A stretch of DNA of 15,195 nucleotides from a virus (taxonomy: Duplodnaviria; Heunggongvirae; Uroviricota; Caudoviricetes), in the IMG/VR virus record IMGVR_UViG_2663763000_000006. One strand, 5' to 3'. Within the stretch, counting starts at the first letter, position 1. The number at the start of each line of letters is the position of its first letter. The notes under the pieces were generated by a model. The model saw only the letters and a program-made list of their open reading frames with translations, did no database searches and had not been told where the DNA came from. A program made the translations under genes and the position numbers. Below, piece after piece: positions 4,856-6,736 of this stretch.

Positions 4856-6736
4856 TTATACTGCGGGATTATTGATTTCCAGCACCAGGCTGCCGATATC
4901 GACGCCGTACGCGGCATTTTTAGTGATATCAGTTAACGTCAGCGCATTCAGCCCCAGTGTCAGACTGTCTTTTATGACCTGGAATGCCGGGCCAGCCACT
5001 CCATTCAGTTTCGGAGTAACCGTGGCACTGCCGGCGGTGAACACCAGCTCCAGCGTCTGCCAGTCGTTACTGTAATTCCCGAACTCGCCCAACTTTGTGT
5101 TTCCGGCTTTCTTGTGATGCATCAGATTCAGTTTGCCGTCTGTGGTCTGGGTGAAGAACGACATCAGGAACGGGTTACCAGTCCCGGTCATCGCCACGAC
5201 GTCAGGTAACGCTACATCGGTATACAGATAAATTCCCAGACCGAACTGGTTGTTGGTCAGTGCGCCTGACAGTCGAAACTTACAGCTCAGTCTGCCACCC
5301 CGTGTCAGCAGGGAGACTGCGTCATCCACCGGATGCATCAGGGACCAAGTTTTATTGCTCTGCTTGGTAACCTTAAACACACCATCTTCCAGCGCAACAC
5401 TGCCGCCGGTGATGGTCCAGCCCTGCGCAGCAGCCTCTCCGGCTGTCGGCAGCAGGGAGACTGTACGAACGGATGTGTCACCATCAGACGGCCCCGATGG
5501 AGTGTCGCCGCCGGGCGAGGGTTTGATTTCCGGTGCGGTACCGCTGATGAAGGCGCTGGTTCGACCAACTGCGTTCAGAATAGCGGTTGCCAGGCGATCC
5601 GAAATAATGCCCCTGCGTGCCCATGAACTGAAATGTGTCGGACGATTTGACGATACCCAATTACCATTACTACGGGATTGCGCGCCGTAATAACCTGCAT
5701 CAGCAATATCCGGGTCTTCTGCCGGTAAGTTGGTGGGCGTGTTGTTGCCGTTACCGTCGGTCATGAACGGCACAAAGAAAACGTTGTCGCTCTCCCTGTT
5801 TTTGTACGCGCCGTAGACGGAGTCATACTGTGTGCCGTATGTGTTTTTCCAGTAATACGTCGTGTCGCCACAAATCCACGGTATAACTGCAGCACTGCCG
5901 CCATGGCACTGCGCGTTAAATCCGGAAAGGTCAGTACGGAACTGCTTCAGCATGGCCGTGAACAGGTCCGGTTGCTGTGCGTAGGTGGCAGCGCTCATGT
6001 CAAATTCGCCCTGCATCCAGCACACCGCCAGCAACACATTTTTCGGGTTCTTCTGTAATGCCGCTTTGGTGCGTGCGATCAGGTCCTGATATAACGGCTT
6101 ACCCGCACCCCAGCGCGCCGAATCCTGGCTGGCCCCCGTGGTCGTACTGAATGTTCCCTCCGCGCCCTGAGTGAATGCCGAACCACCACGACAGCATGGT
6201 ACCAGCAGGATCCCCGCGTTATTCGGGATATACGGGAGTAGTTTTTTGGCAATATGAAGTCCCTGTCCCACACAGCCGTACTGACCTTTGCTCAGGTCCG
6301 CCTTCGGATGATTCAGCGTACTCATATCCTGCACATCATGCAGACAGTGGTCAGCCGGGATGATGTCGTTATACGTACAACCCTCTCCACCCGGGGGTAC
6401 CGTACTGCGGCGCGCCAGCTGTTTAATGCGCGGATCCGGAGCATCGTAAGAATCCGGTAACGGAAGCCCTTCACCGTAAGCCATGCCGTTGGACTGCCCG
6501 GCAAGCACAACCACGTAGTACCATTCCGGCGTCTTGTTGTTTGGTAATGGCTCAGAGGGCGTCTCGGTGGCACCATCGGCCACCATGGCCTGCATGAGAT
6601 ACCACGGGGTGCCGGGCTCGTAAGCTACCCGTGTGTCCCCCTGAAGATGCCACCCCTTCGCAAGATATTCATTCACTTTCCGGGTCAGTTCAGCCTGTGT
6701 CATGGCTGTAATCAGTGCAAAGTTCTTACTGGTCAT
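4856..6736 (-). CDS. Phage cargo (moron) protein: putative sialate O-acetylesterase, NanS-p-like (DUF1737-type N-terminal domain + SASA/SGNH esterase domain + C-terminal beta-rich domain)
   Basis: 626-aa ORF. N-terminal ~55 aa (MTSKNFALITAMTQAELTRKVNEYLAKGWHLQGDT...) resembles the small DUF1737 domain at the start of prophage NanS-p esterases. It is followed by WYYVVVLAGQSNGMAYGEG, containing the GQSN signature of the SASA carbohydrate-esterase domain. Start ATG 6736..6734 overlaps the lysC stop (ATGA). P2 has no gene at this position. Confidence 0.7.
   Translation of the reverse strand: MTSKNFALITAMTQAELTRKVNEYLAKGWHLQGDTRVAYEPGTPWYLMQAMVADGATETPSEPLPNNKTPEWYYVVVLAGQSNGMAYGEGLPLPDSYDAPDPRIKQLARRSTVPPGGEGCTYNDIIPADHCLHDVQDMSTLNHPKADLSKGQYGCVGQGLHIAKKLLPYIPNNAGILLVPCCRGGSAFTQGAEGTFSTTTGASQDSARWGAGKPLYQDLIARTKAALQKNPKNVLLAVCWMQGEFDMSAATYAQQPDLFTAMLKQFRTDLSGFNAQCHGGSAAVIPWICGDTTYYWKNTYGTQYDSVYGAYKNRESDNVFFVPFMTDGNGNNTPTNLPAEDPDIADAGYYGAQSRSNGNWVSSNRPTHFSSWARRGIISDRLATAILNAVGRTSAFISGTAPEIKPSPGGDTPSGPSDGDTSVRTVSLLPTAGEAAAQGWTITGGSVALEDGVFKVTKQSNKTWSLMHPVDDAVSLLTRGGRLSCKFRLSGALTNNQFGLGIYLYTDVALPDVVAMTGTGNPFLMSFFTQTTDGKLNLMHHKKAGNTKLGEFGNYSNDWQTLELVFTAGSATVTPKLNGVAGPAFQVIKDSLTLGLNALTLTDITKNAAYGVDIGSLVLEINNPAV

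Follow-up and report, generated by a model that had tools for sequence, protein, structure and literature searches.

A NanS-p-type sialate O-acetylesterase gene with a P2-lineage N-terminal domain in the late cluster of a P2-like prophage

Phage-borne NanS-p esterases have so far been treated as a feature of Shiga toxin (Stx) and other lambdoid prophages that helps enterohaemorrhagic Escherichia coli to feed on mucin sialic acids, and the activity of the lambdoid enzymes on 5-N-acetyl-9-O-acetylneuraminic acid (Neu5,9Ac2) and mucin has been summarised (PMC8065619). The lambdoid proteins (L0105/z1466 of 933W, vb_24B_21 or gp84 of phi24B, and 'yjhS' of Stx1a phages) arrange a DUF1737 domain, a SASA esterase domain and a DUF6645 domain in that order and are encoded in a late operon adjoining the lysis genes. 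Here we analyse a nanS-p-type gene with the same domain order and likewise in a late region next to lysis genes, located at positions 4856-6736 on the minus strand of IMG/VR virus record IMGVR_UViG_2663763000_000006 (15,195 nt in all; this whole stretch is called the window below). Its host differs from that of the lambdoid genes, being an E. coli prophage of the P2 family, a myovirus with a gpN capsid. NanS-p has already been mentioned in 'non-Stx prophages', and in the searchable literature no paper came up that links it to P2-like phages.

Two described proteins are close enough to guide interpretation. A 2026 preprint (bioRxiv 10.64898/2026.04.10.717836) reports gp84 of phi24B as a major virion component: its DUF1737 domain attaches, as a hexamer, to the central hexons of the T=9 capsid, and the remainder of the protein is cleaved off. 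The product of the gene studied here shares with gp84 the Pfam family and the predicted fold of the N-terminal domain, and the rest of the two proteins is homologous. Chromosomal NanS (YjhS; Protein Data Bank (PDB) entry 3PT5) has the catalytic domain in common, with identical GQSN, QGE and His motifs, but it aligns only over chain residues 17-332 of 337, lacks both the DUF1737 domain and the lectin-like C-terminal domain, and belongs to the nanCMS operon, unlike the phage-borne gene. NanS is exported via a signal peptide.

Architecture, context and accessory status of the gene

We regard it as probable that the gene encodes a P2-lineage version of phage NanS-p, a late protein of three modules that would combine an enzyme, a lectin-like part and late expression with possible docking on the capsid. 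All three Pfam matches of the product exceed their gathering thresholds: DUF1737 (27.5 bits against a cutoff of 24) covers residues 4-53, SASA (47.1 bits) residues 75-271 and DUF6645 (70.1 bits) residues 477-587. The protein also matches PHROG 143 from end to end with 1077 bits, its residues 69-388 match the NanS structure 3PT5 with an E value of 1.3e-122, and its residues 431-623 match 6YP6, the solved lectin-like C-terminal domain of a phage NanS-p, with an E value of 3.7e-30. The protein as a whole shows an amino acid identity of 79% with alleles of Stx1a phages and ~50% with the 933W/phi24B type. The SGNH blocks are complete, with GQSN at residues 80-83 (containing Ser82), RGGS at 183-186, QGE at 242-244 and an RPTH motif with His368, a variant previously described in the NanS-p of Stx2a phage 86. 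From these alignments residues 69-395 are predicted to be a NanS-type SGNH sialate 9-O-acetylesterase with Ser82 as nucleophile and His368. The original prediction, made from the letters of the window, had proposed a NanS-p-like esterase with a DUF1737 N-terminus and a GQSN-containing SASA/SGNH domain, and the profile searches, the 3PT5 match and the identity to Stx1-phage NanS-p all agree with it; the search for SASA and DUF1737 profiles that it suggested returned both above the gathering score. It had also named the absence of a Ser-His-Asp triad as grounds for rejection, which is ill-posed, as only the Ser and the His have been established by mutagenesis in NanS and the acidic residue is not established even there.

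The C-terminal domain had been called uncharacterised, a description that the DUF6645 match and the solved homologue 6YP6 correct. The AlphaFold2 (AF2) model of the whole product has a mean predicted local distance difference test score (pLDDT) of 71.8 and contains a confident beta-sandwich at residues 424-621, and residues 431-626 are assigned by homology to a lectin-like jelly-roll (DUF6645). The corresponding domain of phi24B NanS-p is a lectin-like jelly-roll and a proposed carbohydrate-binding module, and the aromatic site proposed for vb_24B_21 (Y510, Y515, Y540 and F611) aligns here with F498, Y503, F528 and L594. For every feature by which NanS-p family membership could be tested, namely architecture, SGNH blocks, close homology and a prophage late region, the gene was found to agree with the family. 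Proteins of this type number thousands of database entries under generic annotation; the copy in E. coli 55989 is labelled 'DUF6645 domain-containing protein' in RefSeq, a label that, judging by its sequence, can be read as NanS-p esterase.

The 626-amino-acid open reading frame (ORF) had been placed correctly by the original prediction, with the correction that it lies on the minus strand, and it runs intact from an ATG over 1,881 nt. Reading the sequence directly also confirmed the slot between lysC and R and the overlap with the lysC stop, in which the nanS-p ATG (6736-6734) and the lysC TGA (6735-6733) share an ATGA; 23 nt separate the nanS-p stop from the R start. The frame is no chance ORF, as its esterase and N-terminal domains have ratios of nonsynonymous to synonymous substitution rates (dN/dS) of 0.07-0.13 and 0.08-0.30, respectively. 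A 3.2-kb block of E. coli 55989, within a complete P2-like prophage that adjoins a tRNA cluster at 2.144-2.177 Mb of NC_011748, is 99.7% identical to the window, and the two nanS-p copies show only ~4 differences.

From this anatomy, translation of nanS-p would be coupled to lysC within the late head/lysis/R-S transcription unit, and the product would be made late, together with the capsid and lysis proteins. Its N-terminus, MTSKNFALITAMTQAELTRK, shows no signal-peptide-like hydrophobic stretch, and the protein is predicted to be cytoplasmic and to leave the cell only at lysis. The combination of coupling to lysC with the lack of a signal peptide, promoter or terminator of its own points to late production and release at lysis. 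By analogy with characterised family members, the esterase would remove O-acetyl groups from free and mucin-bound sialic acids, and the lectin-like DUF6645 module probably holds the enzyme on glycans.

Within the P2 family, the gene is an accessory insertion of the P88-like branch, and in E. coli roughly one in three P88-like prophages carries it. Of 5,426 complete E. coli genomes, 373 (~7%) have the filled 3.2-kb block, with bovine, human and environmental isolates among them, and the empty site, searched with a constructed join of R directly to lysC/lysB, is contiguous in 686 of the 5,426 at ~92% identity. Among 75 classifiable loci of IMG/VR relatives, 21 are filled and 54 are empty; the gene is thus no core late gene occupying this slot in the majority of P2-like phages, and it was such core status that the original prediction had named as grounds for rejection. 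The P2-type N-terminal domain was found by tblastn in only three Peduoviridae records among 50,697 phage records, or three of the 469 that encode a P2-family capsid protein (vB_EcoM-569R5, vB_EcoM-705R2 and a P88-like ST131 prophage), and the gpN of P2 itself shares <60% identity with the gpN of the window. Between filled and empty prophages, homology stops ~52 nt before the nanS-p ATG, in the 3' end of lysC (~6788), and returns at the R start. The last ~50 nt of lysC (6733-6788) differ from those of empty-site prophages and belong to the inserted segment, and the first ~15 codons of R carry junction-linked differences from empty-site alleles, with N5D, H13R and G14S near-fixed. In one empty example, O145:H28 RM12581, lysC overlaps R by 14 nt. 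No flanking repeats were visible in the junction alignments of filled and empty prophages.

Exchange with lambdoid copies and a P2-lineage N-terminal domain

Aligned with the lambdoid allele L012, the DNA agrees no better than at random ahead of the gene and across nt 1-200, rises in identity from ~0.5 to 0.88 at nt ~240, reaches ~100% over nt 660-1860 and loses its similarity shortly before the stop codon. From nt ~240 to ~1860, which encode the esterase and C-terminal domains, identity is therefore 88-100%, and the 5' boundary of homology with lambdoid alleles falls in linker 1. When 80 IMG/VR loci retrieved with the protein were classified by context, those in lambdoid context encoded an esterase up to 96% and a C-terminal domain 99-100% identical to those of the window. 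P2-type alleles differ from one another in mosaic patches within the same two domains. Near-identical esterase and lectin DNA in lambdoid alleles indicates horizontal exchange or gene conversion and not convergence, and the sequence patterns argue that this part of the gene is continually homogenised with lambdoid nanS-p by recombination.

These results change how the placement of the gene is to be read. The original prediction had called it convergent, which the 88-100% DNA identity contradicts, and had equated it with the lysis-adjacent placement of the lambdoid gene, which holds only loosely: in lambdoid Stx phages the gene lies between stx and holin S, upstream of the lysis cassette, whereas here it lies downstream of lysC and is coupled to it. 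Nor does the term moron fit well. Scans gave two sigma-70 promoter-like sites against 2.4 expected from shuffling and five intrinsic-terminator-like sites against 4.5 expected, none of them convincing around nanS-p, and there is no composition shift, the GC content of the gene (0.52-0.58) being that of its flanks. What does agree with a moron is the presence or absence of the gene between otherwise collinear relatives. As a whole, the earlier interpretation of the gene is partly supported.

The N-terminal domain behaves differently from the rest of the protein. It is 22-36% identical to lambdoid DUF1737 versions, and among the IMG/VR loci it tracks phage context completely, with every P2-context N-terminus 84-100% identical to that of the window and every lambdoid-context N-terminus at most 36% identical or undetectable. 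Divergent alleles (P0046, 64%, and P0061, 56% overall) occupy the same slot, between a lysis cassette and gpR, in other P2-like phages, whose endolysin is a different one (PF00959). Their N-terminal domains are 60-62% identical to that of the window, as against 22-33% for lambdoid domains; their esterases are no nearer to the window's than a 933W-type esterase is. The dN/dS of residues 1-55 (given above) amounts to purifying selection, and the adjoining linker is hypervariable. In the AF2 model the domain consists of a strand (residues 5-11), a helix (14-26) and two further strands (29-38 and 46-53), and this predicted single helix with three strands is the layout described for the phi24B capsid-binding domain. 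We found no stand-alone P2-type DUF1737 protein in a word-seeded search of the 72-residue N-terminus against a set of 5.8 billion proteins (fragments only) or in an exhaustive phmmer search of 1.84 billion representatives (eight weak or short matches). On this sequence evidence, P2-like phages own a long-standing, selected DUF1737 lineage fused to a shuffled esterase-lectin cassette.

A third arrangement occurs in Mu-like prophages. The homologue there (P0097, 682 residues; loci L087-L089) has a SASA and DUF6645 core ~60% identical to the protein here and carries, instead of DUF1737, an N-terminal region of ~113 residues that gave no Pfam or PHROG match. Its gene (10001-12049 in L087) is followed by DUF1378 and DUF826 genes, as in lambdoid phages, and lies between gin and com/mom, not next to lysis genes.

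Several loci invite separate mention. In two IMG/VR contigs (L010, of which L092 is a duplicate, and L011), P2 head and lysis genes with a P2-type N-terminus are joined to lambdoid genes for holin and lysozyme and to a lambda-type terminase. We considered them as real inter-prophage recombinants and rejected this, as none of 5,426 finished E. coli genomes covers at least 80% of the junction at one place; they probably arose by mis-assembly at the multicopy nanS-p sequence. In a divergent P2-like phage (L091), a DUF1378 gene lies between nanS-p and gpR at 10046-10213; a small DUF1378 gene also comes after nanS-p in lambdoid Stx phages, which hints that both genes arrived together from a lambdoid source. 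One P2-type NanS-p of 752 residues (P0022) is fused to a C-terminal phage tail-collar domain (PF07484), as a real fusion, a frameshift or an assembly artefact, and the phage records ON470599, ON470623 and PV468777 terminate inside nanS-p.

Capsid docking and competing roles

Given that the phi24B DUF1737 domain binds the capsid, the P2-lineage domain could be a capsid adaptor. The gpN of the window matches the solved P2 capsid protein 7JW1, and P2-type gpN hexamers accept the external proteins Sid and Psu. Like a docked NanS-p, Psu and Sid of P4 would be external accessory proteins on gpN hexamers, but they are unrelated to it in fold and sequence; they bind the 'sir loop' of the gpN A-domain (residues 183-224) and not the E-loop positions that co-vary here (P4 procapsid paper), and Psu binds only small, P4-size capsids. 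By analogy with gp84, DUF1737 may dock the enzyme on the gpN capsid, and the virion would then bear a mucus-binding, sialate-de-O-acetylating activity.

An association of carriage with gpN was seen among 80 IMG/VR loci retrieved with gpN, 75 of which could be classified for nanS-p. All 21 carriers have a gpN at least 98.9% identical to that of the window, and 53 of the 54 non-carriers have an allele at 94.9-96% identity, the remaining one having the carrier-type allele; put the other way, nanS-p fills the site in 21 of the 22 loci with carrier-type gpN and in none of the 53 that have the alternative allele. Searching the complete genomes for the carrier-type gpN block gave 372 records at 99% identity or more and 585 at 80-90%, to be compared with the 373 filled sites. 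When 15 late proteins were scanned site by site under strict criteria, near-fixed amino acid differences appeared only in gpN and in the first 14 residues of R, which abut the insertion. The ten gpN sites are S85T, I90T, I99V, M101L, S103N, Q105K, T124A, Y159D, D162N and H164S; six of them map to the E-loop on the surface, and three follow closely on the spine helix, judging by the AF2 model and the P4 procapsid paper. The deep P2-type carriers (L090 and L091) gave no independent support for co-adaptation of gpN: they share only S85, S103 and D162, of which S85 and D162 are also frequent among P2-family capsid proteins in general.

The first strict scan had suggested that gpN was uniquely linked to carriage, a claim that a looser per-site analysis downgraded. 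The phi coefficient of the best site with carriage is 0.97 for LysB, 0.91 for K, 0.83 for Y, 0.51 for X, 0.80 for L, 0.79 for M, 0.97 for N and 0.54 for O. Linkage is thus broad from lysB to N, and shared ancestry explains much of the gpN signal, which is a secondary maximum on a linked haplotype and no isolated island. Carriers and non-carriers also differ at ten near-fixed single-nucleotide polymorphisms (SNPs) in K (7443-7546), with no associated near-fixed amino acid change, and at five in gpM (9341-9524). These SNP islands indicate residual haplotype linkage across the lysis-to-head block.

Further observations weigh against docking or against the wider account of the gene as a late virion gene. 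The co-varying gpN sites lie off the hexamer centre, where the phi24B DUF1737 binds. Two features of the gp84 decoration protein that can be judged in sequence are lacking here: the anchor Tyr42 is not conserved (Thr43 is aligned, with Y39, W45 and Y46 nearby, and the loop differs), and the SSP processing motifs are absent from both linkers (ATETPSEPLPNNKT and KPSPGGDTPSGPSDGD). Moreover, on its T=9 shell gp84 is confined to the flat central hexons (bioRxiv 10.64898/2026.04.10.717836), and P2-family shells are T=7. Among the lambdoid phages sampled, the idea that DUF1737 variants track head type was rejected, as one identical DUF1737 N-terminus occurs with lambda-type heads (gpA, gpB and gpC) and with HK97-type heads (a fusion of protease and major capsid protein). 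An N-terminus that tracks phage type would also be expected from a single ancestral fusion with recombination confined to the homologous part. The Ogr-type or P2 late-promoter motif TGT-N12-ACA was not found in the O-P intergenic region, and the late-operon assignment of nanS-p, drawn from synteny, is putative. Finally, S (3737-4372, minus strand) has an in-frame stop at codon 65 (~4178-4180), where E. coli 55989 has Gln, and S is annotated as a pseudogene with an 'internal stop' in the near-identical OkiPb01713 genome; the prophage lineage with this stop is probably defective. A 5-bp deletion at ~13017 relative to 55989 also shifts the frame of terL (11705-13456, plus strand), leaving ORFs at 11705-13042 and 12834-13451. 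The terL gene is intact in OkiPb01713, and both S and terL are annotated as intact in 55989, so the terL deletion in the window reflects strain-specific decay or a sequencing or assembly error. With the prophage defective in this window, no virions would arise here, and the gene would be at most that of a lysis-released enzyme. We hold tethering of the enzyme to gpN through DUF1737 to be doubtful. Equally tentative is the broader proposal that NanS-p proteins are modular virion-display enzymes, in which a mobile esterase and lectin cassette would be carried on phage-type-specific N-terminal adaptors and the P2-type adaptor would dock on a co-adapted gpN through E-loop changes at 85-105; the adaptors may comprise the lambdoid DUF1737, the P2-lineage DUF1737 and the unclassified ~113-residue Mu-like domain.

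The gene may instead be pure metabolic cargo, as in the original prediction, with lysing cells releasing an esterase that de-O-acetylates mucin sialic acids and lets their siblings grow on N-acetylneuraminic acid (Neu5Ac) and acetate, and with DUF1737 as an inherited appendage that serves, for example, folding or oligomerisation and has no role in the virion. We give this a realistic though less than even chance. Lambdoid nanS-p alleles have a documented benefit for growth on Neu5,9Ac2 (PMC8065619), the gene is dispensable, as the 686 empty-site genomes attest, and it is still intact in a prophage with a dead S; the occurrence of one lambdoid DUF1737 with two unrelated head types and the non-conservation of the phi24B anchor Tyr and processing motif point the same way. 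Cargo of this kind is harder to reconcile with an N-terminal domain under purifying selection that has been kept in three deep P2 lineages, with a gene that is welded into a structural and lysis operon and has no autonomous promoter or terminator, with the association between carriage and gpN allele, and with the abundance of the phi24B homologue in the virion, of which it is a major component (bioRxiv 10.64898/2026.04.10.717836).

Two other explanations appear improbable to us. The enzyme could strip O-acetyl groups from O-antigen, capsule or another bacterial polysaccharide and so aid adsorption or free progeny from debris, a possibility raised in a review of Stx phages (PMC8065619) that would fit late expression and release with the progeny and would make good use of a lectin-like module for polysaccharide targeting. 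Its catalytic domain, however, aligns with the sialate-specific NanS over residues 69-388 (E 1e-122), characterised members act on sialic acids, and most E. coli hosts lack sialylated surfaces. We give similarly little credence to the gene being a silent passenger of a decaying prophage that does nothing in this window. The internal stop in S, shared with the OkiPb01713 pseudogene, and the terL deletion would agree with decay, but the nanS-p frame is intact over its full length with ~4 differences from the 55989 copy, the upstream lysis genes and the late-operon layout are intact, and late transcription could persist in a defective prophage.

Feature coordinates and implications

The gene lies in a P2-family late cluster on the minus strand, in the order L, X, holin, M15 endolysin, LysB, LysC, nanS-p, R, S, V, W, J and I, with terminase and portal on the opposite strand. 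Coordinates of the features discussed are collected in Table 1.

Table 1. Coordinates of nanS-p, its predicted modules and the neighbouring late genes in the window.
Feature	Position	Strand	Basis
nanS-p-type gene with DUF1737, SASA/SGNH esterase and DUF6645 modules	4856..6736	-	Pfam; PHROG 143; PDB 3PT5 and 6YP6
N-terminal DUF1737 domain, residues 1-55, predicted P2-lineage variant	6572..6736	-	Pfam; AF2; tblastn; dN/dS
Linker 1, residues 56-68, hypervariable	6533..6571	-	0-8% amino acid identity among P2-type alleles
Predicted NanS-type SGNH sialate 9-O-acetylesterase domain, residues 69-395	5552..6532	-	3PT5 match; motifs
Linker 2, residues 396-430, Pro/Ser/Gly-rich	5447..5551	-	AF2 pLDDT <50 at 403-422; alignment
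Predicted C-terminal DUF6645 beta-sandwich, residues 431-626	4859..5446	-	6YP6; Pfam; AF2 all-beta, pLDDT 80-93
GGGAG Shine-Dalgarno within the 3' end of lysC, 7 nt before the nanS-p ATG	6744..6748	-	Sequence read
lysC, Rz1-like o-spanin	6733..6921	-	PHROG Rz-like spanin; RefSeq, identical block in 55989 and OkiPb01713
lysB, DUF2570, Rz-like i-spanin	6875..7282	-	PHROG; RefSeq annotation
M15 metallopeptidase endolysin	7279..7671	-	PHROG; RefSeq annotation
Holin	7668..7991	-	PHROG; RefSeq annotation
R, tail completion/terminator protein	4365..4832	-	PHROG 65
gpN, P2-family major capsid protein, candidate DUF1737 docking partner	9638..10690	-	7JW1, E 2.5e-81
gpN codons ~85-218, 45 near-fixed SNPs and 10 amino acid changes between carriers and non-carriers	10037..10437	-	Per-site SNP scan

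Two further observations concern the same prophage. Positions 725-822 of the window are 98 N bases, an assembly gap or masked stretch in a region collinear with the tail-fibre gene of the 55989 prophage ('phage tail protein'). Outside the window, a gene of the 'serine acetyltransferase' family (9806-10378 in L001, 1818-2390 in L172) lies between the tail cluster and the tail-fibre assembly gene, on the strand opposite to the latter; it is possibly a second cargo gene with acetyl-group chemistry.

The nanS-p gene described here belongs to a known family, and the parts worth following are the P2-lineage N-terminus, the Mu-type variant and the association with gpN. Should the capsid link be wrong, the nanS-p finding would still be a useful annotation. 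The view of NanS-p as a lambdoid trait changes in that the enzyme cassette is also a common late-operon gene of P2-family prophages, where it exchanges sequence at near-100% identity with lambdoid copies and yet retains an N-terminal domain specific to the phage type. Influenza C virus, coronaviruses and toroviruses have haemagglutinin-esterases, which are virion-borne SGNH-type sialate-O-acetylesterases with a jelly-roll lectin; these proteins belong to eukaryotic enveloped viruses and, to our knowledge, have no detectable sequence relationship to NanS-p. If the display reading is true, temperate coliphages of several morphotypes may carry a mucin-modifying enzyme on their heads, and such a capsid-borne, mucus-binding and receptor-destroying activity would be the phage counterpart of these viral enzymes. 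It would then bear on how phages behave in gut mucus and on how prophage load affects sialic-acid foraging in commensal and pathogenic E. coli.

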